Positions 3,607-64,000 are shown, counted from the first letter of the stretch. The stretch is 64,000 nucleotides of DNA from Armatimonadota bacterium (GCA_039811685.1 JBDHZC010000009.1:32001-96000), one strand, 5' to 3'. Notes: generated from the sequence alone by a model not told the origin. A program made the numbers and translations.

Positions 3607-5907
3607 TTACTCCTCTATCAGAAGCGCCGCGTCTATGAACTGTCCACCGCTGTCTTGATGGCAGTGGATGGCTATGGTGTTGTCACCCTTTTTCAGCGCC
3701 CTTTGGGCCTTGTCTGTCACATCGAACATGGCGTAGCGGTCGGTCCAGCCCTCTCCTGTCCAGATCAGATGGCCATTCAGATACACCTGCGCGTCGTTGT
3801 CGAAGTGCACAATCAGAGCCACGCGCTCTCCCGGCGCAGCGCGCAGCGCGAAGCTTTGCCTCAGCCAGATGTCCGGAGTTGTCCACGGTGTTCCGGTGCG
3901 GCTCTGCCAGTGGTCTTTTTGACCGAAACCTCCCTGTCCGCTTTTCCAGGCAGAATCGTCAAAATCAGACGCCGCCCAGTCTGCAGGCGGTGTGTCTAAA
4001 GAGTACCGCCAGGGTTTGTGGTTTTCATCAACTGCGGCGCCCACGGCTGTTGCCCACTGAACAGTCACCGGGCGATCGGCGGCTGGAGGAGATTTCTCGT
4101 AAGCGGCTTCGCCCTGTGTCATGGCATGGATCCGGGCTATATCCCACTTGGGTTTTCTGTCATAGGTGTAGAGGCCGTTGCGCTCCTGTTCGACGTCAGT
4201 GAGTTGCGTATAGCAGAAACCGAACATCAAAGGATTGTCCAGGAGAGCGTCTGTCAGACCTTTGTAGCGCTCATAAAACTCCGCTTCGTCTTTGGGGGCT
4301 GTACCGTAGCCCCAGCCTTCACCGGTCGGGTTCCACTTGATGCCGCCGTACTCGCTGACGAAAAACGGTATACCGCGATACATATCCTCTCCGCCGTAAC
4401 GGGCTGGAAGGGCGCCCAGGGCTGGTGGACTGCTGAAGCGGTGGCGGAAGGAGGCCGGATTCTGATCGTAGTCGTGAGCGTCAAGGACTTCGGGATCGGG
4501 AAGTGTGTGCGTCCATCCACTGGAGTCTATGACAGGTCGCGACGGGTCCAGCGCTCGCGTGAGGGCTACGATGGTATTCTGCAGCTCACCGGCAGACGGA
4601 GGGGTCTCGTTGAAGGGACACCAGCCGATAATGCACGGGTGGTTGCGGTCGCGCCCGACGATCTCGGTCCACTCACTGACCACCGGCAGATTGGCTTCCG
4701 GGCGCGCATAGTCCAGTCCCCAGTTTGGGTACTCACCCCAGCAGAGATACCCTTCGCGATCCGCCCAGTAGAGAAAACGCGGCTCAAACACTTTCTGGTG
4801 CAGGCGGGCCCCGTTGAAGCCCACGGCTTTCGACAGCAGGATATCCTGATGCAGCGCTTCGTCGGAAGGCGCCGTCCAGATGCCTTCGGGATAGAATCCC
4901 TGATCCAGCACAAGGCGCTGAAATACGCGCTTGCCGTTTATCAGGATGGCCGGTCCCTGAATGCGAACATCGCGCAGGCCGAAATAGCTGTGCAGGCTGT
5001 CAATCGTGTCTTTGCCGCGGCGCAGTGAGAGCTTGAGATCGTAAAGGAACGGTGTTTCCGGCGACCAGATGCGCTTCCTGGACAGCGGGATAATTAATTG
5101 ATTGTCCCGCCAGACGGCGGGAGCCTGCGCGCTTCCGGCTTTTGCGCCGTTCGCCAGCGCCTCTGCTGTGACTTCCAGCCCTTTCGAAGCGCCATCCACA
5201 TCCACCTGTACGACAGCTCGCCCACCAGCAGGGTCCGGCAGAATGCGTACCGCGCTGATGAAACTCTCGCCCACGCCTTCCAGCCAGACGGTTTGCCAGA
5301 TGCCCGTAGTGCGCGTATAGACCGCACCGTGGCTTTCCGGCTGAGCAGACTGCTTTCCGAGCGCCTGCAACCCGCTTCGCGTGTCATCGTAGGCGGCGAC
5401 GACGATTGTATTTTCGCCGGCTTTGAGGCAATGAGTTATCTCAAAGGCAAACGGGGCGCTGCCACCGGTATGCTGGCCGAGAAACACACCGTTCACCCAC
5501 ACGCGCGTGCGCCAGTCTGAGGCGCCAATGTGCAGCCTTGTTCGAGGCGACTTCCACGATGCGGGAAGCGCGAAAGTGCGGCGGTACCAGACGTTTTTCA
5601 CAAAGCCGGTGCGCTGGAGTCCGGAGAGGCGGCTTTCACGGCAGAAGGGCACCAGTATCTTGTCCGGGTAGGGTGCAGAGCTCAGGTAGAGCTCGTCCTG
5701 ATTCTCGTCAGTCTCAGCGAACTCCCAGACGCCGTTGAGGTTCAACCACTCAGCGCGCTGCATTTGAGGAAGTGGGTGCTCCGGGCGCGGGATGTCCGGC
5801 GGCTGATGACTTTGAGCCGCACTCACGCGGACGGCCGCGGGCAGCAGCACAGCGAGCGCCAGAGCGACTTTGAGCGCAAGAGTTGCTTCTGGGAGAGAGA
5901 CGAGCAT
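3607..5907 (-). CDS. Glycoside hydrolase family 2 (beta-galactosidase/glucuronidase-like), secreted, with C-terminal beta-sandwich
   Basis: PRPEHP..WLNLNGVWEF, TGIWQTVWLE, GFNGARLHQK, WCPFNET, FVSEYGG motifs; N-terminal signal peptide. Confidence 0.92.
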   Translation of the reverse strand: MLVSLPEATLALKVALALAVLLPAAVRVSAAQSHQPPDIPRPEHPLPQMQRAEWLNLNGVWEFAETDENQDELYLSSAPYPDKILVPFCRESRLSGLQRTGFVKNVWYRRTFALPASWKSPRTRLHIGASDWRTRVWVNGVFLGQHTGGSAPFAFEITHCLKAGENTIVVAAYDDTRSGLQALGKQSAQPESHGAVYTRTTGIWQTVWLEGVGESFISAVRILPDPAGGRAVVQVDVDGASKGLEVTAEALANGAKAGSAQAPAVWRDNQLIIPLSRKRIWSPETPFLYDLKLSLRRGKDTIDSLHSYFGLRDVRIQGPAILINGKRVFQRLVLDQGFYPEGIWTAPSDEALHQDILLSKAVGFNGARLHQKVFEPRFLYWADREGYLCWGEYPNWGLDYARPEANLPVVSEWTEIVGRDRNHPCIIGWCPFNETPPSAGELQNTIVALTRALDPSRPVIDSSGWTHTLPDPEVLDAHDYDQNPASFRHRFSSPPALGALPARYGGEDMYRGIPFFVSEYGGIKWNPTGEGWGYGTAPKDEAEFYERYKGLTDALLDNPLMFGFCYTQLTDVEQERNGLYTYDRKPKWDIARIHAMTQGEAAYEKSPPAADRPVTVQWATAVGAAVDENHKPWRYSLDTPPADWAASDFDDSAWKSGQGGFGQKDHWQSRTGTPWTTPDIWLRQSFALRAAPGERVALIVHFDNDAQVYLNGHLIWTGEGWTDRYAMFDVTDKAQRALKKGDNTIAIHCHQDSGGQFIDAALLIEE

Positions 5908-6076
5908 GTCTGGATAGTGTCCTGTCAGGGTTTGTGGGTGTCTTATCGTTTGTGTAACGGGTTACCTGCACCACTTTTGTGCGGTCTAGTGGCTTTATGG
6001 GGCGGATATTTCCGTCATGGGCGGATTTCGTGCCGGTCGCCACGCTTCTGGCTTTTCGATACAATCTGCAACGAGC

Positions 6077-6694
6077 ATGGAGACAGAGCGAAACTCCAGT
6101 CAACACAGACGGATTGTGGTGTCCCTGGGCGGCGCCAGCGGGAGCGCTTACGGCGTGGAGTTCCTGCGTCAGGCATCCCGCATCTGGGACCACGTCTGGT
6201 TGACGTTCAGCTCACAGGCGCTTACAGTGGCCAACCACGAGCTGGGTCTGAAGGGTTTTGACCCGGAGAAGGACCTGCGCCTGGGAGAGTTTGCGCACAG
6301 AGTGCATCTGCTCAATCCCAAAGACCTCGCCGCTGCGCCCTCCAGTGGCTCCTGCCGCTATGACGGTCTGGTTGTCGTTCCGTGCTCGATGGGGACGCTC
6401 GGGCGCATCGCGCATGGAGTGTCAGACGATCTTACGACCCGGGTGGCTGACGTGTGCCTCAAGGAGCGCCGGAAGGTCGTTCTCGTTGTGCGGGAGACTC
6501 CTTTGTCCGCCATTCATCTTCGCAATATGCTTTCCGTGACGGAGAGCGGAGCGATTGTGCTTCCGGCATCCCCGGCCATGTATCACCAGCCGAAGACTGT
6601 TCAGGATATGGTAGAGTTTGTCGTGGCGCGTATTGTGCAGACGATGGGGATGGAGCAGAAGCTGATGCGCGGATGGCGGGAGGATGAGCTTTGA
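6077..6694 (+). CDS. ubiX: Flavin prenyltransferase UbiX
   Basis: IVVSLGGASG, SSGS, VPCSMGTL, LKERR, RETP, PASPAMYHQP; ATG 6077 preferred over 6017. Confidence 0.93.
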   Translation: METERNSSQHRRIVVSLGGASGSAYGVEFLRQASRIWDHVWLTFSSQALTVANHELGLKGFDPEKDLRLGEFAHRVHLLNPKDLAAAPSSGSCRYDGLVVVPCSMGTLGRIAHGVSDDLTTRVADVCLKERRKVVLVVRETPLSAIHLRNMLSVTESGAIVLPASPAMYHQPKTVQDMVEFVVARIVQTMGMEQKLMRGWREDEL

Positions 6695-7581: not shown

Positions 7582-8391
7582 ATGAAGACAACAGTTCTGG
7601 GCTGTCTGCCCTATCTGAACGTAAAGCCGCTGATTCGCTCCATTGAGCGCGAGGTCCCTGCGGGGTATGAGCTTATCTACCGGACTCCGTCGCTGCTGGC
7701 GCAGGCGCTGCGCAGCGCGAGGTGTGATATTGCCGCCGTTTCCAGCTTTGAAGCGCTGGACAATCCGGATCTGGTTATTGTGCCGGATATTTCCATTTCT
7801 TCGGATGGAAAAGTGTCCTCCGTTCTGCTATTCTCAAACAGGGATTTTCAGGACATTCGCACAGTGGCTCTGGACACGAGCTCACTCACCGGGGCGGCTC
7901 TGACGCGCATTCTCCTGAACGATCTCTACGGCGTGCAGCCTGACGTTATCCGCAGTGATCCGGAGCCTGAGGATATGTTGAAAGTTGCCGATGCTTGTCT
8001 TGTCATTGGCAACAACGCTATGACCAGAGCGCCCCGGACGCCGTACGTGCTGGATCTGGGCGAAGGGTGGAAGCGACTGACGGATCTGCCGTTTGTTTTT
8101 GCCGTGTGGGCGGCGCGCCGGGACGCTGTGGACGACCGCGACGTCGAGATTTTGCGGGACGCAAGAAGCCGGGGAATGGAGCGCATCGACGAAATTGCCC
8201 GTGAAGAAGCGCCGGGACTGGGAATTACAGAGGCGCGGGCGCGTAACTACCTGGCGGAAATCATGGTCTATGATTTAGGAGAAAGGGAGCTTCAGGGGCT
8301 CGGGGAGTTCTGCCGCCGCGCTCAGGCTCTGGGGCTATTGTCCGCAGATGCCGGCGCATGTCTTTATCAGGGGCAGACCGCGACCCGCTAG
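7582..8391 (+). CDS. mqnA: Chorismate dehydratase
   Basis: YLNVKPL, V.SVLLFS, SSLT, LVIGNNA, DLGEGW..LTDLPFVFAVW. Confidence 0.9.
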   Translation: MKTTVLGCLPYLNVKPLIRSIEREVPAGYELIYRTPSLLAQALRSARCDIAAVSSFEALDNPDLVIVPDISISSDGKVSSVLLFSNRDFQDIRTVALDTSSLTGAALTRILLNDLYGVQPDVIRSDPEPEDMLKVADACLVIGNNAMTRAPRTPYVLDLGEGWKRLTDLPFVFAVWAARRDAVDDRDVEILRDARSRGMERIDEIAREEAPGLGITEARARNYLAEIMVYDLGERELQGLGEFCRRAQALGLLSADAGACLYQGQTATR

Positions 8392-8461
8392 AGGCCCTGG
8401 CTTTCGGACGAACCTGGGCGCCGCGTGCCCGCGCGGCGTCACCTGGGGGTGGGTGACTTTC

Positions 8462-9760
8462 ATGAATACATCTGATGTTACTTACAGCGCATCTGCCATG
8501 GCTGTGAACCGCGCCGCGGCCCGGGGAGATGTCTCCATGCTTCGCGCAGCCCTGGCCGCTGAGCCAAACCGCCTGAACAGGCGGGAGGGACGGTGGAGCC
8601 TGACTCCGCTGCACGAAGCTGCGCGTCACGGCCGCCTGGCGGCCACCGAGTTTCTTCTGCTTGAGAAAGCGGCCAATCCCAATGTGCCGGACGCTGCCGG
8701 TGAAACGCCTCTGCACGGCAGTCTGCGGCGCCCGATCGCTGATCTTCTGGTCCGGTGTGGCGCGGATTTGAACGCGCAGGACTGTATGGGCCGAACCCCT
8801 CTGCATGTCGCCGCTTCTTCAAGACATTGGATGGTGCGGTTGCTGCTGGAGTCCGGCGCAACGGTTGACATTCGCGACGAGGACCACTGCACGCCTTTGC
8901 ACTACGCCTGCCGCACGGGCCGGGTCAAGTCGGTGAAGCTCCTGCTGGCAGCAGGGGCAGACCCAAACGCGCGCGACACGTGCGATAGAACCCCCTTGAT
9001 TGAAGCCACAAGCTCCGGCAGTTGCCGGACTGTGCAGATTTTACAGAAGGCCGGCGCTGAGTGCAGTTGCCGCTTTTCGGGTGAGGCTGAGACGCCTGTG
9101 CACATTGCGGCTCACTTTGGGTACAGAGAGGTGCTGCAGCTTCTGCTTGCTTCGGGTTGCCCTGTGGACGCTCGCAACGGGCGCGGAGAGACACCTCTTC
9201 ACCGGGCCGTGCGTATGTGGCAGATTGTGCCGGTTTGCGCCCTGGTGCGGGAAGGAGCGGATGTGCGGGCTGTGGACAGCAGGGGCCGGACTCCTCTCCA
9301 CTACGCGGCTGTCGGACTGGATTCGGGGCTGGTGACGTTGTTGCTGAGTCGCGGAGCAGAAGCCTCAGCGCCGGATAGTGAGGGCAATACCCCGTTGCAC
9401 CGCGCAGTGGGAATGGGTTGCCTGGCCAACACCAGAGCGCTGGTGGAAGGTGGCGCTGAGATTTCGGCGCGCAACTATGCCGGGCGCAATGCGCTGCACG
9501 AGGCCGCCCGCTGCTCCCAAATTGAAATCATCCGGTATCTAGGGGCCCAGATGGACTGCGAAGAGCGCGACAATGCCGGGCGAACAGCTTTGCATGTGGC
9601 GGCGCTGGAGGACTGTTGGAAGGGCTGCAAAGCGCTGGTCAAAATGGGGGCTTCGCTCAACGCACGGGATTTCAGCGAAAAGACGGCGCTCGCTCTGGCG
9701 GTGGGGGAGGGTCACTACAAACTGGCGAAGCGCCTCAAGGGTCTTGGCGCGCGGATGTAG
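8462..9760 (+). CDS. Ankyrin repeat protein (about 12 repeats)
   Basis: Repeated G.TPLH.A...G....V..LL..GAD.N units; start uncertain (8348 or 8462). Confidence 0.9.
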   Translation: MNTSDVTYSASAMAVNRAAARGDVSMLRAALAAEPNRLNRREGRWSLTPLHEAARHGRLAATEFLLLEKAANPNVPDAAGETPLHGSLRRPIADLLVRCGADLNAQDCMGRTPLHVAASSRHWMVRLLLESGATVDIRDEDHCTPLHYACRTGRVKSVKLLLAAGADPNARDTCDRTPLIEATSSGSCRTVQILQKAGAECSCRFSGEAETPVHIAAHFGYREVLQLLLASGCPVDARNGRGETPLHRAVRMWQIVPVCALVREGADVRAVDSRGRTPLHYAAVGLDSGLVTLLLSRGAEASAPDSEGNTPLHRAVGMGCLANTRALVEGGAEISARNYAGRNALHEAARCSQIEIIRYLGAQMDCEERDNAGRTALHVAALEDCWKGCKALVKMGASLNARDFSEKTALALAVGEGHYKLAKRLKGLGARM

Positions 9761-56848: not shown

Positions 56849-57939
56849 GAAAATGCAGGTGGTCTAGCGCTATCTCGGCCGGGCTGCTGATTGCTGTTGC
56901 TCTTTCGAGCACAGCTTCGGCGACGAAGGTCGTTTTTAACGGAGACGGTGTGGCGGTTGTGGATGGGCGGCCTTTCTTTCCGATTGGCATCTACTGTTAC
57001 AACCTTACCAGCGACATAATGGCTGATTTACACGAGCGGCGCTTCAACACGATAGTCAACATTGTTACGGGATTCGAGGCTTCGCAGCTTGACTTCATTC
57101 ATCAGAATGGGCTGATGAGCGTTGTTCCTTACACTCCGGAGTGGGTGAAGGCCGCCAAAGACCACCCTTCTCTGCTGGCGTACTATCTGACGGATGAGCC
57201 GGAAGGGCACGGCGACGTGGTAGAGAAGGAGCGGGAGAAGTACCTGGAGATGCGCCGGGAAGACCCGAACCATCCGGGCGGGTTGTGTCACTATCTCTTC
57301 GGGGCGATCGAGCGCTTCAAAGACGCATGCGACTTCACGATGAGCGATGTGTATCCTGTGACGGCCAGCCGGGATACGCCGCTGCGAAATGTCGGGGTTC
57401 ACATAGACGAGGCGCACCGCGTACACGGGCGCATGTGGCCGACGTGGGCGTGGATTCAGGTTTTTGGCGGGCCGGATACCGATGGTGGCAAATGGGCGCA
57501 GCCTCTGGCGCAAGAGGTGCGCTGCATGACTTACATCGCTCTGGCGCATGGAGCAACGGGGATTCTCTACTTCTCTTACTGGCCGAAAGCTCCGGAGACT
57601 TGGGGGTCGTTGGGTGAGTTGAACCGGGAGATAGAGGTGATAACTCCCTATCTGGTTGCTCCGGGCAAAGAGAGTGCGGTGTCTTCTGACAAAAATCAGA
57701 TCGAGATGCGGGCTCGCAAGTGCGTGAGTGGAGGGGTTGTCATAGCCGTCAACACTCAGCCAACTTATGTCAGCGCAAAGCTGAAGGTGGACGGTTTGCG
57801 CAACTCTCTGGAAGCGCCCTTTGAGAACCGCGCGCTGGAGACGGAGAACGGGTCCTGGCAGGATCGCTTCGCGCCCCATGAAGCGCATGTGTATGTCTGG
57901 GGAAAGGCTCCGAAAGTTGAGCTGGGAGGGATGAGATGA
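56845..57939 (+). CDS. Secreted glycoside-hydrolase-like TIM-barrel protein
   Basis: DGRPFFPIGIY, FNT, YYLTDEP, DVYP, HGATGILYF. Confidence 0.7.
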   Translation: MRKCRWSSAISAGLLIAVALSSTASATKVVFNGDGVAVVDGRPFFPIGIYCYNLTSDIMADLHERRFNTIVNIVTGFEASQLDFIHQNGLMSVVPYTPEWVKAAKDHPSLLAYYLTDEPEGHGDVVEKEREKYLEMRREDPNHPGGLCHYLFGAIERFKDACDFTMSDVYPVTASRDTPLRNVGVHIDEAHRVHGRMWPTWAWIQVFGGPDTDGGKWAQPLAQEVRCMTYIALAHGATGILYFSYWPKAPETWGSLGELNREIEVITPYLVAPGKESAVSSDKNQIEMRARKCVSGGVVIAVNTQPTYVSAKLKVDGLRNSLEAPFENRALETENGSWQDRFAPHEAHVYVWGKAPKVELGGMR

Positions 57940-58823
57940 AGCTGGCGATGGGTGAGCGTGAGATGGAGCTGGGCGGCCCTTACCTGGGCACGTTGCCGGA
58001 GGCCACACATCTTATGGGAGATGCGGATGCGTTGCGTGAGCAGATGGAGCGTGACGGATTTTTGCTGATCCGCAAGCTGCACGATCCGGAGAAGGTGAAG
58101 GCGGCGCGGCGGCTGGTTCTGGAGAATCTGCGCGACAACGGCCAGCTTGACTCGGAAGCGTCGTTGGAAGAAGGGTTGCTGCGCGAAGGCGGTCGCGGCG
58201 CGTTTCTGGGAGGCTCAAAAGCAGTGACGCACACACCAGAGTTCCTTTCGGTCGTGGAATCTCCGGAGCTGATGCGGTTCTTCAGCGATTTTCTGGGGGC
58301 GCCGGCGCTGACTTTTAGCTACAAATGGCTGCGAGCAGTGGGGCGTGGGGAGTTCACGGGCGCGCACTACGACGTGGTCTATATGGGGCGTGGAACAGCA
58401 CGGCTTTTCACATGCTGGACTCCACTGGGCGATGTGTCTTTTGAAAACAGTCCCCTGGCTATTCTGGAGGGCTCGACGCGCATTGAGCGGCTGAAGCAGA
58501 CGTACGGGCGGATGGACGTGGACAGAGACAACGTCGAAGGGTGGTTTTCCAATGATCCTGTTGAACTGGTCGAAAACTTCGGCGGGCGCTGGCTGACTTC
58601 AGAGTTTGAGATGGGCGATGCTTTGATCTTCGGGATGTATCTGATGCATGGATCGCTGAGGAATATGACGAATCGCGTACGCCTGAGTTGTGACACGCGC
58701 TATCAGAGCGCAAATGAGCCGGCGGATGAGCGCTGGACCGGGGAGAATCCTCTGGCGCACTACGCATGGGGACAAACTGAGATGACTCCAATGGCCGAGG
58801 CGCGCAGACGCTGGGGCGTCTGA
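57936..58823 (+). CDS. Phytanoyl-CoA dioxygenase (PhyH) family Fe(II)/2OG oxygenase
   Basis: AHYD, WTPLGD, GD..IF....HGS, RLSCDTRYQ. Confidence 0.9.
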   Translation: MKLAMGEREMELGGPYLGTLPEATHLMGDADALREQMERDGFLLIRKLHDPEKVKAARRLVLENLRDNGQLDSEASLEEGLLREGGRGAFLGGSKAVTHTPEFLSVVESPELMRFFSDFLGAPALTFSYKWLRAVGRGEFTGAHYDVVYMGRGTARLFTCWTPLGDVSFENSPLAILEGSTRIERLKQTYGRMDVDRDNVEGWFSNDPVELVENFGGRWLTSEFEMGDALIFGMYLMHGSLRNMTNRVRLSCDTRYQSANEPADERWTGENPLAHYAWGQTEMTPMAEARRRWGV

Positions 58824-59050: not shown

Positions 59051-59093
59051 TTGCATTTGCCTAAAACGCCTGTTATGATACGAACAAATGTTC
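59051..59093 (+). promoter_or_regulatory. Sigma-70 promoter with adjacent LexA (SOS) box
   Basis: TTGCAT(59051)-N17-TATGAT(59074) with TG extension; GAAC-AAAT-GTTC at 59082-59093 over the predicted start site. Confidence 0.75.
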
Positions 59094-59112
59094 TGTTCAA
59101 GGAGGGCGAGGA

Positions 59113-59475
59113 GTGGTCCACGGTGCGGCGGTGGCGATCGGTTCTTCGCGCGGGTTGGCGCAGACGCTCTGGCGGCCGGCGCTGGAGGCGGTTGGCTCTG
59201 AGGGCACAGAAGCGCAGACGGGAGTGGCGTATCTGCTGGAGCGCGAGTTTCGCGAAGTGGTGGCGCTGGCGCGGATGAGCTTTCGGGAACGCGAGGCTCT
59301 GGAAATGGCTCGCTGCGGATGGAGTGAGACGGAGATGGGCAGGGCGCTTTCTCTCAGCCGCTCTCAGACGACAGAGTTGCTCTCCAAAGCGCGACGGAAG
59401 CTACAGGCGGCGCGCGAGAGATATCCGTTTGCGGGTCTGTGGGAAGTTTACCGGGATGAAGTAGCGCGGCTGTAG
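59113..59475 (+). CDS. Sigma-70 region-4-like HTH protein, putative late-gene activator
   Basis: MS.REREALEM...GWSETEMGRALSLSRSQ....LSKARRKL; RBS AAGGAGG. Confidence 0.7.
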   Translation: MVHGAAVAIGSSRGLAQTLWRPALEAVGSEGTEAQTGVAYLLEREFREVVALARMSFREREALEMARCGWSETEMGRALSLSRSQTTELLSKARRKLQAARERYPFAGLWEVYRDEVARL

Positions 59476-59506
59476 GCACGGTGGTGGAGGTTGGGCTGAA
59501 GGGACT

Positions 59507-59887
59507 TTGCTGAAGAAAAAACAGAGCCAGGCAGTGGATCTGCTGTTTCTGGGCTCCCCGGAGAAGGTGGCGCAGAAAGTGGGCGTGCGGCACTCGACGC
59601 TGCAACGCTGGCTGGAGGACAGGCGCTTTCAGCAGGCGTTGAAGGCGCGGGCAAAGCAGAAGCGCAGGGCCAGCGAGCGCCTGGCGCTGCAGGCGGTGAT
59701 GATGGCATCGAGCGCTCTTGAGGCGGCTCTTCGAACAGGTGAGGACCGGCCCGTGACGCGAGCGGCTCTGGAGACGTTGAAGATCAGCGGCGTATTGCCG
59801 GGCTGCCTGGAAGCGACGCGGGACAGCGCGGACTCTCTGGCGGATGTGATTGCGCGGGTGAAGGCGGAGATGGATGAGCACGGTTAG
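59507..59887 (+). CDS. Putative terminase small subunit (N-terminal HTH)
   Basis: L.KKQSQAVDLL..G..EKVAQKVGVRHSTLQRWL....F, then helical; overlaps the terL start. Confidence 0.65.
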   Translation: MLKKKQSQAVDLLFLGSPEKVAQKVGVRHSTLQRWLEDRRFQQALKARAKQKRRASERLALQAVMMASSALEAALRTGEDRPVTRAALETLKISGVLPGCLEATRDSADSLADVIARVKAEMDEHG

Positions 59888-61235
59888 CCGGGCGGGAAGT
59901 CAACCTCGGCTCCGGCTGGCCCTGGCTAAAGCGCTATGGAACTGGCAGGCGCATCCGACGCAGAGAGAGTGGCTGTTGTGTGACGCTTCTGTAAAAACTG
60001 CGGCTTGCGGGCGGCGGTGGGGAAAGACGGAAGCGCAGGCCGTGGACGCAGCGAGCTTCGCGTTGGTGCACGATGGCTCTGAACAGATAGTGGTTGCGCC
60101 GACCTACGACCAGGCGTCACTCATTGCGCGCGGGGTCGAGCGCCTGTTGCTCGGCTCACCGGCAACGCGCACGCTAACGCAGGTGCGCCGGACTCCCTAT
60201 CCGTTGATTACTGTTGGTCGGAGCCGGATTTCCGCCCGAACGGCGGATGAAGACGGGCGCGCTCTGCGGGGACACCGCGCGGATCGCGTGATTGTGGACG
60301 AGGCGGCTTTTGTGCGTGACAGCGTTATCTCGGAGGTCATCCAACCTATGCTGGCGGACTCCGACGGGCAGCTTATCCTGATCAGCACTCCTTACGGGCG
60401 CAACCTGTTCTGGAAGCTGTGGAGCCAGGGCGCCTCCGGGAACCCGAAAGCCGCCTTCCGCTTTCCGTCCAGCGCAAATCCGCACATCAGCGCCCGCTAT
60501 GTGGAAGAGCAGCGGGAGCGCCTGCCCGAGCGGGCCTTCCGGGCGGAGTATCTGGCTGAGTTTGTGGACGATCAGGCGCAGGTGTTCGCGTGGACGGATA
60601 TTCAGCAGTGCTTTGAGCTTGGGCGCACGCCTCACCAACCCTCTAGCTCTGTGCGGGAGCGGCGCATTGTGGCGGGGATTGACTGGGCCCGCTACTCGGA
60701 TTGGACGGTGTGTGCGGCGGTGGAGTGCGCCTGCGATCCATGGCGCGTTGTGGCTCTGGACAGGTTTCAGGGGCTGAGCTGGCAGGCGGCGGTGGAGCGC
60801 GTGGCAGGTTTTCTGAAAGACACTGAAGCGTGCGCTGCGCTCTCAGACGCAACCGCAACAGGAGGAGATGCGCTCCTGGAGCAGCTTTGCGTGGCTGTAG
60901 CGGGAGCGGGTTGCGAGGTAGATGGTTATGTCTTCACGTCAACGTCCAAGCAGCATCTGGTGGAGAATCTGAGCGTGGTTATGGCGCGTGGCGGCCTTGC
61001 GCTGCCGCCGGAAGAGCTTTCGCATTCTGGGGCGCTGATTCACGAGTTGAAGAGCTATCAGTATGTCCAGCGCCCTGGCGGCGCTGTCAGCTTTGGCGCA
61101 GCGCCGGGGGAGCATGATGACTGCGTCACAGCGCTGGCTCTGGCCGTGTGGCAGGCGAAGAACGCGCCGCAGTGGCGGATTATGACATCGGGTGCGCTGC
61201 TCGGCGATCGGCGGCGCGGGCGCGCGTTGTGGTGA
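59874..61235 (+). CDS. terL: Terminase large subunit
   Basis: Walker A CGRRWGKT, VAPT, Walker B VIVDEAAF, ISTP; nuclease GIDWARYSD.T and HDDCVTALALA. Confidence 0.93.
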   Translation: MSTVSRAGSQPRLRLALAKALWNWQAHPTQREWLLCDASVKTAACGRRWGKTEAQAVDAASFALVHDGSEQIVVAPTYDQASLIARGVERLLLGSPATRTLTQVRRTPYPLITVGRSRISARTADEDGRALRGHRADRVIVDEAAFVRDSVISEVIQPMLADSDGQLILISTPYGRNLFWKLWSQGASGNPKAAFRFPSSANPHISARYVEEQRERLPERAFRAEYLAEFVDDQAQVFAWTDIQQCFELGRTPHQPSSSVRERRIVAGIDWARYSDWTVCAAVECACDPWRVVALDRFQGLSWQAAVERVAGFLKDTEACAALSDATATGGDALLEQLCVAVAGAGCEVDGYVFTSTSKQHLVENLSVVMARGGLALPPEELSHSGALIHELKSYQYVQRPGGAVSFGAAPGEHDDCVTALALAVWQAKNAPQWRIMTSGALLGDRRRGRALW

Positions 61236-61286
61236 TAAGTGAGCAGTCTCTCTGGTTAGGGCAGGGACACTGAGAAGGAGGGTTTT

Positions 61287-62384
61287 GTGGCAATAGCTGG
61301 TCTCTTGAAGCGTCTGAGGCGTGAGGGGAAGGGGTCTGAAGCGCCGGTGGAGCTGGCGGCAGCCAGGCGACGGTACTTATCCGGACCGGGCGCCTTGCTG
61401 CCGTACAATCCGGACGACCTTGCCCGGCGCGAGGGGCTGGAAGTGTACGACCGGATGCAGACGGATGCCCAGATTGCGGCGGCGCTGGTGACGAAGAAGT
61501 TTGCGGCACTGTCCGGGGGCTGGCGGGTTACGCCCGCTTCAGAGCGGCGCGAGGACGTGCAGGCGGCGCAGTTTTGTCACCGGGCACTGGAGGAGATGAA
61601 AGGGACGGTGGAAGACGCGCTCTACGGAGTGCTGGACGCTCTGGCAAAGGGCTACTCGGTGGCTGAGATGAACTTTGCGCGCGTTGGAGACCGCGTCGGT
61701 CTGGCGTCTATCAAACAGAAGGATCCGGCGCTGTTTGAGTTTGAGACAGACGAGTATCTGAACATCACAGCGCTTGTCAGGATAGGAACAGACGGAGATG
61801 AGCCCCGGAAGCTGCCTGTGGAGAAGTTCATCATCTACACCTACATGCCCACCTATGCGGACCCGCGGGGACGCTCGGATCTGCGCTCATGCTACCGCCA
61901 CTGGTGGACCAAAGATGTCATTCTGCGCTTTTTCGCGTCGTATCTGGAGCGCTTTGGCTCACCCGTGGTCAAGGGGACGTACCGCCGCGGGGCGACGCGC
62001 GCCCAGCAGGAGGATCTCCTGCGGATTCTGGACCGCATCCAGCAGGAGACCGCCATCGTCATTCCGGAGGACGTGACGGTGGATCTCCTTCAGGCGGGGC
62101 TGCAGGGCGAGAAGGGATTTCTGGAGGCCATCGCCTATCACGACCGGCAGATGGCCAAAGCCATCCTCGGAGAAACGCTGACACAGGAAGAGGGGCTGCG
62201 CACGGGCGCTCTGGCTCTGGCGAAGGTGCATCAGGATACGCTGAAGCTGCGTCTGCAGAAGATCAAGCGCGATCTGGAGGAGACTGTGGCGCGTGAGCAG
62301 ATTCTGCGTCCGCTGACACGGCTGAACTTTGCCGGAGCGGCTGTACCGCGGTTTGAGCTGGGCGCATTCGACGCCAGCGTGTGA
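61287..62384 (+). CDS. Phage portal protein (DUF935/Mu gp29-like), short
   Basis: Y..M..DAQI, LDAL.KGYSV.E, W..K, ERFG.P, I.YHDRQMAKAILGETLT, ALAKVH. Confidence 0.88.
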   Translation: MAIAGLLKRLRREGKGSEAPVELAAARRRYLSGPGALLPYNPDDLARREGLEVYDRMQTDAQIAAALVTKKFAALSGGWRVTPASERREDVQAAQFCHRALEEMKGTVEDALYGVLDALAKGYSVAEMNFARVGDRVGLASIKQKDPALFEFETDEYLNITALVRIGTDGDEPRKLPVEKFIIYTYMPTYADPRGRSDLRSCYRHWWTKDVILRFFASYLERFGSPVVKGTYRRGATRAQQEDLLRILDRIQQETAIVIPEDVTVDLLQAGLQGEKGFLEAIAYHDRQMAKAILGETLTQEEGLRTGALALAKVHQDTLKLRLQKIKRDLEETVAREQILRPLTRLNFAGAAVPRFELGAFDASV

Positions 62385-62463
62385 AGCGCATGTGTTGGGT
62401 TTGGGCGGCGGACCCTGAGAGCCCGCTGACAGCAGGTAGGTTTGCCTGTTCTGCCTAAATTGA

Positions 62464-62512
62464 TTGACATAAACTACCGAAGAGGGTATAAGATAATTAA
62501 CCTGGAAGTTAA
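62464..62512 (+). promoter_or_regulatory. TA promoter with palindromic operator
   Basis: TTGACA-N17-TATAAG, then TTAAC-N6-GTTAA (62497-62512). Confidence 0.6.
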
Positions 62513-62514
62513 CA

Positions 62515-62898
62515 ATGCCAGTCTCGCTCTGTAAGCTGCCGCTCGCAGAGAGGGTCCCTGCTGTTCAGTATGAGTTCTACCTGTGGACGGATGGTGAGCG
62601 CTCGCCCGTTGCCGAGTTTCTGAGTAGCCTCCAGCCCGCAGACCTGGACAAGGTCAAGGCGTTGCTGGTCCGGGTGGCGCGCTGCGGGATTCCGAGGAAT
62701 GGCGAGAGATACAAGCGTCTGGCGGGGAACTACGAAAATCTCCATGAGTTCAAGTTGCACCAGGTGAGGCTCTATTTCTTTATGGAGGGCAAGAAGATTG
62801 TCTTCACGGAGGCAGAGATCAAGAAGAGGGACCGGTCCAACCCCCAGGCGCTTGCCCGAGCTGATGCGCGACGACGGAGATATTCCAGTGAGAAGTAA
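62515..62898 (+). CDS. RelE/HigB (Gp49-like) toxin
   Basis: SPVAEFL..L, YKRL.G..NLHEFK..QVRLYFF..G..IV.T....KK. Confidence 0.85.
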   Translation: MPVSLCKLPLAERVPAVQYEFYLWTDGERSPVAEFLSSLQPADLDKVKALLVRVARCGIPRNGERYKRLAGNYENLHEFKLHQVRLYFFMEGKKIVFTEAEIKKRDRSNPQALARADARRRRYSSEK

Positions 62899-62911
62899 AA
62901 GGACAGGCGAA

Positions 62912-63340
62912 ATGGCTGTAGATGATTTGTTGAAGAAGATGGCCGGGGGCGCCGAAAGCCCTGTCTATCAGACGGAGAAGGTTATTCTGGATTTCACGGA
63001 GCGCATCTGTGAGATTATGGAAGACTCGGGAACAAGCCGTGCTGAGCTGGCTGAACGGCTCGGGCGCTCTCGTCCGTGGGTGACCAAGCTCCTGAGAGGT
63101 GATCAGAATATGACCATTGCAACGATGGTCGGGGTCATGCTGGCTCTTGGCTACGAACTGAGGCTTGAGGCGCTGCCACGTGACAGGGTCGCTGCGCAGT
63201 GGCAACTCATTGAAGAGAGCCATCCTCCGGTGATTAAACTCTTTCCCAGGGCTGCGCGAGATATCTCTTATGAGTTTGAGGAAGAGCTGGTTGCAGCGGA
63301 AGCAGGGAGCACAGCCGATGGACACACTGTCGCCGCTTGA
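62912..63340 (+). CDS. HigA-like XRE HTH antitoxin with C-terminal extension
   Basis: IMEDSGTSRAELAERLGRSRPWVTKLLRGDQNMTIATM..ALG; tail of about 50 aa ending HTVAA. Confidence 0.85.
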   Translation: MAVDDLLKKMAGGAESPVYQTEKVILDFTERICEIMEDSGTSRAELAERLGRSRPWVTKLLRGDQNMTIATMVGVMLALGYELRLEALPRDRVAAQWQLIEESHPPVIKLFPRAARDISYEFEEELVAAEAGSTADGHTVAA

Positions 63341-63776
63341 GGCGAACCGGATCTGGGTGGAGCGTCTGGATATTCGTTTTGCGCAGGAGCTTAGGGCGCA
63401 CGACTGCTCGGCCTACGATCTGAAGATTGAGCCAAAGGCATGGAAGGACGCCAGTGGTGTCTCATACAAAGTGCGCCTGGCTTTTGCGCTGCGGCCTCGA
63501 GAAGTGGACCAGTGCTGCTACTCAAAGCTGGATGTCGCGATCGTTGGGGTTTTTACACTTCCTAGTGATACGGATGAGGCGATTCGTAGAAACCTGATTC
63601 CACTCAACTGTTATGTGATTCTCTACGGTTTTGCGCGCGGTCTTGTTGCACAGGTTACCGGTCTGAACCCGGGTGGGCCGTTTCTCTTGCCAGCGGTCAA
63701 TTTTATGGAAGTCCTGCGCGCACAGCGGGCTCCGCGTCGCAAGGCCCTGAGGAGTGAGGTGGCGCAGGCTCAATAG
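63318..63776 (+). CDS. SecB-like chaperone
   Basis: SPL, L.V.I.GVF, N...ILYGFARGLVAQVT...PGGPFLLPAVNF. Confidence 0.82.
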   Translation: MDTLSPLEANRIWVERLDIRFAQELRAHDCSAYDLKIEPKAWKDASGVSYKVRLAFALRPREVDQCCYSKLDVAIVGVFTLPSDTDEAIRRNLIPLNCYVILYGFARGLVAQVTGLNPGGPFLLPAVNFMEVLRAQRAPRRKALRSEVAQAQ

Positions 63777-63810
63777 ATAGGCGCGTTTTTCTGATAACGG
63801 CGGTTTTTTG

Positions 63811-63844
63811 AAGGCTCTTCGGACTTGTTCCGGAGGGCCTTTTT
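63811..63844 (+). terminator. Intrinsic terminator after the TAC module
   Basis: AAGGCTCTTCGGA-CTTGT-TCCGGAGGGCCTTTTT. Confidence 0.7.
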
Positions 63845-63888
63845 CATTGCCTGGCTTCGGTGTGAACCAGGAGAAAGGAAGGGTAGGC

Positions 63889-64000
63889 ATGGGGCTTCGT
63901 TGGCTGACACCTTTGTGGGCGGTGGTGCGCTCGGCGGTGCGGCGCAGGCTGCATGAGCTTGTAGATTCTGTGGATGAAGAAGATGTGGAGCGCTTTCGCG
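63889..64000 (+). CDS. Partial ORF, possibly the next head-module gene
   Basis: AAGGAAGG RBS; MGLRWLTPLWAVVRSAVRRRLHELVDSVDEEDVERFR, open to the window end. Confidence 0.5.
   Translation, partial: MGLRWLTPLWAVVRSAVRRRLHELVDSVDEEDVERFR

Follow-up and report, generated by a model that had tools for sequence, protein, structure and literature searches.

A phage-derived cluster of probable head, DNA-packaging and lysis genes without recognized tail genes in Armatimonadota chromosomes

Near the end of a 64,000-nucleotide stretch from an Armatimonadota bacterium (hereafter the window; positions 32001-96000 of contig C9 in genome G000, which is 97% complete; the contig continues 40 kb further) begins a cluster of phage-type genes that totals about 10 kb and extends past the window end. 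We read this cluster, with somewhat more confidence than doubt, as a phage-derived system for head assembly, DNA packaging and lysis that is fixed and vertically inherited in Armatimonadota chromosomes and that is, in this organism, wired to the SOS response. One part of this reading, that the system is of phage origin, host-fixed, selected and vertically inherited, is well supported. An earlier note on the end of the window had proposed a host-domesticated, damage-induced packaging operon akin to a gene transfer agent (GTA) or to PBSX of Bacillus subtilis. At the sequence level domestication has held up: TerL is present in 37 of the 41 genomes of the class, the gene trees follow host taxonomy, and purifying selection is strong. 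The likeness to PBSX or to a classical GTA has not: there are head, connector and lysis genes but no tail, and five tail families were not found in G000.

Gene content, descent and selection

The core genes are listed below in window coordinates or, beyond the portal gene, in coordinates of locus L001, to which 58000 is added to obtain window coordinates.

59113-59475, + strand: small helix-turn-helix (HTH) protein, 120 residues, first gene of the operon, GTG start at 59113; Pfam Sigma70_r4_2, E 5.8e-4
59507-59887, + strand: small terminase subunit (terS), 126 residues, N-terminal HTH; phrog_7344, E 9.5e-8
59874-61235, + strand: large terminase (TerL), 453 residues, ATPase and nuclease domains; Terminase_6N/6C, phrog_2
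61287-62384, + strand: Mu-type portal, 365 residues; Pfam Portal_Mu (PF06074, formerly DUF935), E 4.5e-70
L001 6029-6847: protease/scaffold; phrog_976, E 2e-12; Mu-like_Pro (PF10123), E 1.1e-4, C-terminal part only
L001 6848-7261: decoration/cement protein; phrog_1731, E 7e-28
L001 7524-8420: Mu gpT capsid protein; Mu-like_gpT (PF10124), E 1.6e-74
L001 9708-10142: adaptor, 144 residues, from its predicted fold
L001 10139-10444: stopper, 101 residues, from its predicted fold
L001 10381-10686: XhlA-like membrane protein, a coiled coil with one C-terminal membrane helix
L001 10683-11141: probable CHAP/NlpC-type lysin; Cys...His pattern and language-model neighbors

Open reading frames (ORFs) and Pfam and PHROG matches agree with the earlier description of a phyH gene, a gap (289 bp from phyH to the first operon gene, where 290 had been given), a LexA-box promoter and the order HTH-terS-TerL-portal; the portal, which had been assigned to DUF935, is likewise confirmed by its Portal_Mu match. 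The label of the first gene stands in part: an HTH gene is present, while its identification as a sigma-r4, xpf-like protein is weak, the Sigma70_r4_2 score of 19.9 bits being below the 25.7-bit cut-off. A PHROG search with this gene gave no match, and its homologs, found in family f1 only, are divergently oriented in two loci (L017 and L046); the protein could possibly be an activator or a DNA-binding partner of terS. The adjoining terS, which matches three more terS PHROGs, is next to TerL in relatives too, and the two reading frames overlap by 14 bp. TerL itself matches Terminase_6N (E 2.3e-12), Terminase_6C (E 2.9e-4) and phrog_2 (E 5.5e-38), and no variation is seen among 13 aligned sequences at its Walker A residues (G46-T52), its Walker B residues (D142/E143) or the acidic positions D270, D332, D415 and D416. 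The portal is untruncated and full length for its family because relatives align to residues 362-365. The earlier note had suggested reading on for capsid, tail and lysis genes; over the next 10 kb, capsid and lysis genes were found and tail genes were not, nor was an integrase or replication module.

How firmly is the cluster anchored in its hosts? TerL matches span 27 of the 28 genera and all told five families of the class, mostly in a single copy per genome and mostly free of stops; identity to the window protein is 58-61% in the family, 39-55% in the class and 30-47% in other classes. In 14 of the 16 fetched 20-kb loci terS, TerL, portal, protease, decoration, capsid, adaptor and stopper genes are collinear; in the other two, both from genus g10, terS and TerL lie on one contig and the portal-to-stopper block on another. 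Host flanks are the same within genera g9 and g10. The patchy, decayed distribution that had been named as a sign against domestication is thus not the general picture, the genes being near-universal in the class, yet three genomes are without them and four have stops.

Phylogenies tell a similar story. In a tree built from the TerLs of 40 genomes in 13 families, nine of the ten GTDB families with at least two rows form single clades (the exception is G199), the congruence for which the earlier note had suggested looking, and the class is a clade with support of 97 in the Shimodaira-Hasegawa-like approximate likelihood ratio test (SH-aLRT). Portal (36 rows) and capsid (32 rows) trees agree with the TerL tree, save that f35 is nested in f13. 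When 30 IMG/VR rows were added, 27 labeled viral and three (L161-L163) grouped with the window class, the TerLs of the system formed one clade (39 rows; SH-aLRT 88) apart from 26 of the 27 viral-labeled rows. The remaining viral-labeled row, L197, falls inside the system clade and carries Cem, MCP and u144 matches, and is therefore probably an Armatimonadota contig; L161-L163 are placed inside the class clade, and all four are probably host fragments called viral in public catalogs. Conversely, TerLs of G199, G073, two f19 genomes and G050 group with other viral rows and are better read as those of ordinary prophages. Among 50,697 phage records the best identities are 39% for the capsid protein (Faecalibacterium phage FP_Mushu) and 35% for TerL (Thermus phage Riverbug).

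The ratio of nonsynonymous to synonymous substitution rates (dN/dS), another of the suggested checks, ranges from 0.02 to 0.27 across eight genes compared in four pairs of close species with unsaturated dS, which indicates purifying selection; both dS and dN/dS match those of flanking host genes.

Other classes of the phylum hold the system in a different arrangement. In an even sample of 301 genomes, TerL (E <= 1e-30) was found in 98 and the capsid protein (E <= 1e-20) in 91, concentrated in the same families:

f18: TerL 18/18, capsid 17/18
f29: TerL 13/19, capsid 13/19
f13: TerL 16/31, capsid 14/31
f21: TerL 0/12, capsid 0/12
f25: TerL 0/10, capsid 0/10
f27: TerL 0/15, capsid 0/15

Among the 270 sampled genomes outside the class, 49 carry both genes, 18 TerL only and 11 the capsid gene only; TerL stands alone or with the portal gene, and the head block is sited elsewhere. 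Could all these genes travel in one particle? In the window genome they form one 10-kb block; in nine genomes of other classes with TerL and capsid genes on one contig, the two are separated by 25 kb, 97 kb, 0.32, 0.35, 0.57, 1.0, 1.36, 1.78 and 2.26 Mb. The split modules are flanked by ordinary host genes (rimI-tsaD, glgA, acrB, uvrD and rpmB), and gene order is fixed within each family and particular to it. The named records among the best 80 of 306 confirmed loci are all from Armatimonadota (Fimbriimonadaceae, Chthonomonas, Capsulimonadaceae and Armatimonadales); some titles in this set read simply "bacterium", and one metagenome-assembled genome is labeled Methanoregulaceae.

The LexA box and the host SOS genes

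Upstream of the first gene, the following elements were found:

59051-59079, + strand: putative promoter, TTGCAT (59051-59056), 17-nt spacer, TATGAT (59074-59079)
59082-59093 (C9:91082): LexA box GAACAAATGTTC, 2 nt past the -10 element and 19 nt before the start codon
59100-59105: AGGAGG, between the box and the GTG start

The -35 element is weak, with 3/6 matches to TTGACA, which is why a consensus scanner does not list this promoter; its layout, however, parallels that of the organism's own gyrA-lexA promoter, in which TTGACG, a 17-nt spacer and TATACT are followed by a box. A perfect GAACATATGTTC lies 34-36 bp ahead of a gene for an imuB-like Y-family polymerase (IMS, E 5e-15), after which comes a DUF6504 gene (G000 C1:274693-276359). 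The operator has the form GAAC-N4-GTTC, which we take, name and consensus alike, to be that of the Cheo box. In a matrix scan of G000 the top sites are those of the imuB-like gene (23.0 bits), the cluster (21.4), the gyrA-lexA promoter (16.8) and ruvB (15.0; 86 bp ahead of the gene). To avoid circularity, a host-only matrix was built from the three host sites with the cluster left out: it gives the cluster box 21.7 bits and finds just 22 sites of at least 14 bits in 3.42 Mb. Since the imuB-like gene, the gyrA-lexA operon and ruvB all have a box of this type ahead of them, the cluster box appears to be the LexA box of this host, as the earlier note had it, and no chance match.

Neither lexA nor recA has a box in the short gap before its own start codon, because both follow another gene: lexA shares a transcript with gyrA, which lies upstream of it and has the box in its promoter (G000 C1:602224-605014), and the gene that recA follows has no visible box. 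A plain genome count of GAAC-N4-GTTC shows no excess (27 observed vs about 47 expected); only AT-centered sites in promoters count.

Some relatives also have the box at their cluster. Of 16 class loci, five have a perfect GAAC-N4-GTTC site 400-560 bp ahead of TerL and four more a one-mismatch version; scored by the host-only matrix, the 1 kb before TerL contains a site in 6 of 17 class genomes, and the site density there is 0.35/kb, against 0.016 elsewhere in those loci and 0.006 genome-wide. In f29, in which TerL and head modules are unlinked, perfect AT-centered boxes stand at the start of TerL in two of four loci and 114-316 bp before the capsid gene in all four head loci; in f3 a box is placed before the capsid gene as in f29.

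Function, mobility and alternative readings

If expressed, what would the cluster do? Upon DNA damage, LexA would cleave itself and free the promoter at 59051-59093, as the box suggests. The portal, protease/scaffold, Mu-type capsid and decoration proteins would, judging from their families, assemble procapsids; terS and TerL would fill these with DNA; the adaptor and stopper, given their predicted folds, would seal the portal; and the XhlA-like membrane protein and the peptidoglycan hydrolase would presumably lyse the cell. Because no tail gene belongs to the system, its product would be sealed, DNA-filled, tail-less heads. Their delivery, if any, might use borrowed phage tails, as capsids of some satellites do (see below), or another uptake route; here we speculate.

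For the two connector proteins a sequence-profile search of the PDB gave no usable match, and their assignment comes from structure prediction. The adaptor model (predicted local distance difference test, pLDDT, 75; from a 12-sequence alignment) matches, in VIA-align, the neck adaptors of P74-26 (Z 9.0), HK97 gp6 (Z 7.6), Mu (Z 6.9 and 6.3) and the virion of the Rhodobacter capsulatus GTA (RcGTA; 6tba, Z 5.7), and the SaPI1 neck too, with Z values that are middling for a helical protein; Foldseek returned only matches of E > 1. We call it an adaptor because nearly the entire VIA-align match list consists of phage adaptors. The stopper model (pLDDT 91) matches the T1 stopper, the lambda neck, SPP1 gp16, RcGTA 6tba and the PBSX XkdH structure, with Foldseek probabilities of 0.99-1.00 across the top phage rows. 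The last cluster gene probably encodes a CHAP/NlpC-type peptidoglycan hydrolase, a lead short of proof: clusters of CHAP, NlpC/P60 and Amidase_5 proteins are among its language-model neighbors (0.93-0.94). Most class loci end with a wall hydrolase, which in 7 of 14 is Amidase_3 and in others NlpC/P60, VanY-like or M23 (loci with unassigned ORFs scanned; L029 and L030 were left out), and one relative has an XhlA match in Pfam (E 4e-6, sub-threshold).

Is the cluster mobile? Pfam and PHROG scans of the locus and its flanks revealed no integrase or replication genes, and no gene there matched a primase/rep module or a helper-responsive regulator; no tRNA lies within 17 kb (the nearest is 17.5 kb upstream), and no direct (att) repeats bracket the cluster. 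The absence of such a module, remarked earlier for the upstream side, thus extends to both sides. Just two tyrosine recombinases are encoded in G000, both on contig C2. The upstream neighbors are, by Pfam, host metabolism genes: pyrophosphate-dependent phosphofructokinase (PPi-PFK)-like, ROK kinase, phosphoesterase and PhyH (57936-58823; Pfam PhyH, E 2.2e-12). Downstream are host genes for a fatty-acid desaturase, a sigma-GGDEF fusion and pilus/secretion ATPases. The fusion (L001 13782-15167, - strand, 461 residues) combines sigma-70 regions 2, 3 and 4 with a GGDEF diguanylate cyclase domain. Of the relatives with long contigs the nearest is G004, in which about 600 bp separate the end of the cluster from dnaA (L016 15239-16645).

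Where, then, are the tails? None of about 50 module loci examined has a tail gene beside it. Of the 41 class genomes, 11 gave a tape-measure match and 10 a sheath match; among the 35 with a strong system TerL, 23 gave neither. Tape-measure and sheath genes share contigs with a different, distant TerL and are therefore assigned to ordinary myovirus-type prophages. Such a separate prophage, with sheath, tape measure and a TerL 28-31% identical to that of the system, is found in about one quarter of class genomes (G008:C67, G010:C9, G015:C1:1.25-1.27 Mb, G029:C160, G035:C7, G036:C123, G040:C77 and G006:C1); it is a candidate tail donor or antagonist of the head system. Mu F (PF04233) was not found in G000 with a working control; Mu transposase (PF02914) was not found there either, but its control was silent in every genome.

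The cluster also carries genes of other kinds:

62515-62898, + strand: Gp49/HigB-like toxin; Pfam Gp49, E 4.2e-6
62798-63340, + strand: Xre-type HTH antitoxin; HTH_31, HTH_37; phrog_1373, E 3e-12
63270-63776, + strand: SecB-like chaperone; Pfam SecB, E 1.1e-5, 25.8 bits vs the 26-bit cut-off
63777-64000, + strand: spacer ahead of the remaining cluster
L001 8439-9005: unassigned protein, 188 residues
L001 8816-9691: GDSL esterase

By its gene matches, the 62515-63776 segment appears to be a toxin-antitoxin-chaperone cassette inserted between the portal and protease genes, with no packaging genes; the true start of the antitoxin is probably a later ATG beyond the toxin stop codon. Head genes resume after the cassette; G004 has it at the corresponding place (L016 7766-8976), and G001 lacks it. 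Other class loci have among their core genes an aquaporin, DUF3800, GNAT, a sugar-nucleotide enzyme, a lectin-like protein, a ClpP-like protease and GGDEF proteins. The aquaporin gene is in the TerL-portal gap (L019, L021), and in three relatives (L031, L045 and L054) the protease gene is separated from the decoration gene by GGDEF cargo. Lineage-specific slots (L019 7645-10152, L020 10826-13450 and L018 11308-12078) contain two DUF3800 genes, an 874-residue fusion of nucleotidyltransferase and GHMP kinase and, past the capsid gene, a ConA-like lectin protein; the slot after the capsid gene is variable, with lectin-like, esterase or very large proteins. Repeats are also present: two tandem copies of a 101-nt unit lie between the decoration and capsid genes (L001 7266-7467; window 65266-65467), and related 37-nt and 59-nt copies directly follow the last cluster gene (L001 11124-11262; window 69124-69262). 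Each unit carries the hairpin AGTCTCCCTTCGGAGACT, of which the genome has 14 copies with at most two mismatches, several at contig ends: a repetitive extragenic palindromic (REP)-like element.

A number of observations weigh against a host-fixed, SOS-wired system that makes DNA-filled heads. Without tails, a transfer function is without a demonstrated route; sheath, tape measure, Baseplate_J, gpD and Phage_tail_2 were not found in G000 in searches with controls positive in known genomes, but a divergent or novel tail would escape these five Pfam families. The system is dispensable and sometimes decaying: TerL, portal and capsid protein are all absent from G002, G011 and G014, and in-frame stops occur in TerL of G020, G022 and G023 and in both the portal and capsid genes of G017. 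In the last of these (L155), a TAA lies in the portal gene (5255-6493) and a TGA in the capsid gene (7878-8903), both intact in the congener G013; the stops point either to a recent decay or to an error in the sequence. Flanking host genes are not the same from family to family. The trees come from quick searches with SH-aLRT as the sole support measure, the Armatimonadota-virus split of TerL has support of 88, below 95, and real phages have TerLs that are no less similar (about 40%) than those found in other classes. The composition is unusual for an old resident, with cluster GC content at 0.612 vs 0.578 (99.7th percentile of 10-kb windows), a tetranucleotide distance in the top 1%, and GC about one standard deviation up at each of the three codon positions. 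As for regulation, the LexA box is missing in about 7 of 17 class loci, including that of the nearest relative, G004, and was not found at f18 or f13 loci. The RNA-library contigs on the cluster, identical to it in sequence, are few and short (150-290 nt, four runs from four studies) and possibly derive from carried-over DNA; they cover the promoter/HTH, terS, TerL, portal, unassigned, esterase and lysin regions, give no level, strand or start, and carry no meaning where they leave parts uncovered, and are weak evidence that falls short of proving transcription.

The boldest reading, which we entertain tentatively and with more doubt than belief, is that of an ancient, independently evolved GTA-type head factory, owned by the host, kept in several classes and the first without tails: damage would lead to cellular DNA being packed into sealed capsids and the cell lysed, and the heads would dock on tails shed by unrelated phages, a host-encoded counterpart of what cf-PICIs do, or be taken up otherwise. 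Rather unlikely, in our estimate, is domestication for another end, be it antiphage use (tail consumption, dead-end packaging or SOS altruistic lysis) or release of protected DNA to the community. A system that brings its own lysis genes yet lacks a tail would suit such ends, as would toxin-antitoxin and DUF3800 cargo in the operon and a myovirus-type prophage, a possible partner or target, in about one quarter of class genomes; yet no known defense family was matched (PADLOC was not run), and the full set of terS, TerL, adaptor and stopper suits stable DNA-filled heads and exceeds the needs of a decoy. Tail genes that lie elsewhere and are too divergent for the searched families would make this a classical tailed GTA. 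RcGTA is reportedly multilocus (PMC5026251), the modules are dispersed in other classes, and the variable post-capsid slot encodes lectin-like, esterase or very large proteins, but we regard this reading as improbable given the five families not found in G000, the ~50 loci with no tail gene, and tape-measure and sheath genes that are sporadic in the class and sit beside a different TerL.

A still-mobile satellite, spread among Armatimonadota with helper tails, is also improbable. Its appeal lies in a tail-less gene content that matches the packaging module of a capsid-forming phage-inducible chromosomal island (cf-PICI), as far as the available text of the cf-PICI reports describes it, in loci whose position differs between families and in the atypical composition. 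It sits poorly with the mobility genes, att repeat and tRNA that were sought and not found, with mostly one copy per genome, with trees that follow host families, with synteny within genera and dS equal to that of the flanks, and with modules up to 2.26 Mb apart in other classes. Least credible, indeed highly improbable, is that an old Mu-like prophage, having lost its tail and early genes, persists as an inert remnant: tail genes and Mu F were not found, nor was the transposase (with its silent control), cargo is inserted between genes and a few copies have stops, but eight core genes at dN/dS of 0.02-0.27 in four independent pairs, invariant TerL catalytic residues and frames intact in most of 37 genomes from five families are not what decay leaves, and the set is kept in other classes though scattered.

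If the reading of a fixed, vertically inherited head, packaging and lysis system is right, it matters in several ways. To our knowledge only a handful of independently domesticated GTAs are known, all tailed; a tail-less, SOS-wired head system long kept in a little-studied phylum would add a new GTA origin and design and would connect two fields, those of GTAs and of capsid-forming satellites. It would also raise a testable question: of what use is a tail-less DNA-filled head to the cell that dies to make it? Cultured relatives exist (one locus title names Chthonomonas calidirosea), and experiments are therefore feasible. A more practical use is as an annotation marker for host loci that are publicly labeled viral, such as the three IMG/VR contigs inside the host clade.

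Comparison with known systems

No published description of the system was found in literature on Armatimonadota GTAs and prophage terminases, Chthonomonas calidirosea phage capsids or tail-less GTAs, and the earlier remark that no described GTA was known from this lineage agrees with the literature searched. The 45.5-kb prophage of Fimbriimonas ginsengisoli is, in the available text of its report, an ordinary integrative phage (PMC4072686).

Like RcGTA, the system consists of phage structural genes that are host-fixed, vertically inherited over a large clade and under purifying selection; it occupies several loci in part of its clade and is tied to host regulators, here at the sequence level through the LexA box, and its adaptor and stopper models match chains of the 6tba virion. 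A link of SOS/LexA to GTAs is present in the literature. RcGTA has an HK97-type head with head spikes, a tail and tail fibers; by contrast, the portal, protease and capsid proteins here are Mu-type, and tail genes were not found at about 50 module loci. GTAs of the RcGTA type package random host DNA, as the present system might. The two also differ in composition: in RcGTA clusters the GC rise is limited to GC1 and GC2, according to the available text of the report (PMC7360931), whereas here all three positions are raised, and an RcGTA-like signature (GC1 and GC2 up, GC3 unchanged) was rejected.

PBSX also shares features with the system: it too is a chromosomal, non-propagating element with a link to DNA damage, in which a small regulator gene stands ahead of terS and terL and an XhlA-like membrane protein and a wall hydrolase come at the end. 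PBSX forms contractile tails and is not known outside the close relatives of one species; unlike it, the Armatimonadota system has no tail found, is spread on a phylum scale, and has a first gene for which the xpf-like call is sub-threshold.

The head genes have their likeness in Mu-like modules (Mu and phage FP_Mushu), with which they share the portal (PF06074), the protease/scaffold (PF10123, C-terminal part), gpT (PF10124) and a Mu-neck-like adaptor. Unlike Mu-like phages, the system lacks a detectable Mu F or tail, a transposase was not found (its control being silent), and the closest terminases to its TerL are those of Thermus and Meiothermus phages (33-35%) and not Mu-like ones.

In gene content the system resembles the cf-PICIs (e.g., EcCIEDL933), which also have terS, TerL, portal, protease, capsid and connectors and are tail-less. 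Reports on these islands, as far as their available text goes, describe the release of tail-less DNA-filled capsids that are later joined to phage tails (10.1101/2022.09.08.507074, 10.1101/2025.02.11.637232); within the same bounds, this borrowing is the only demonstrated route by which tail-less heads deliver DNA. A cf-PICI, however, is an integrative, replicating, helper-induced island, whereas no integrase, replication gene or att site was found here; and, unlike a cf-PICI, the system tracks host phylogeny, is split in other classes, and has its own lysis genes and a LexA box. Near-identical copies across species are not the pattern: TerL identity falls with taxonomic distance.

The system would thus be neither a GTA nor a PBSX as these are defined, because no tail gene was found at the module loci or, for five families, in G000, and not a cf-PICI, because integrase, replication genes and signs of mobility were not found. 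Judging from its genes, it would resemble a GTA in its evolution and a cf-PICI in its content, and would be a member of neither group.

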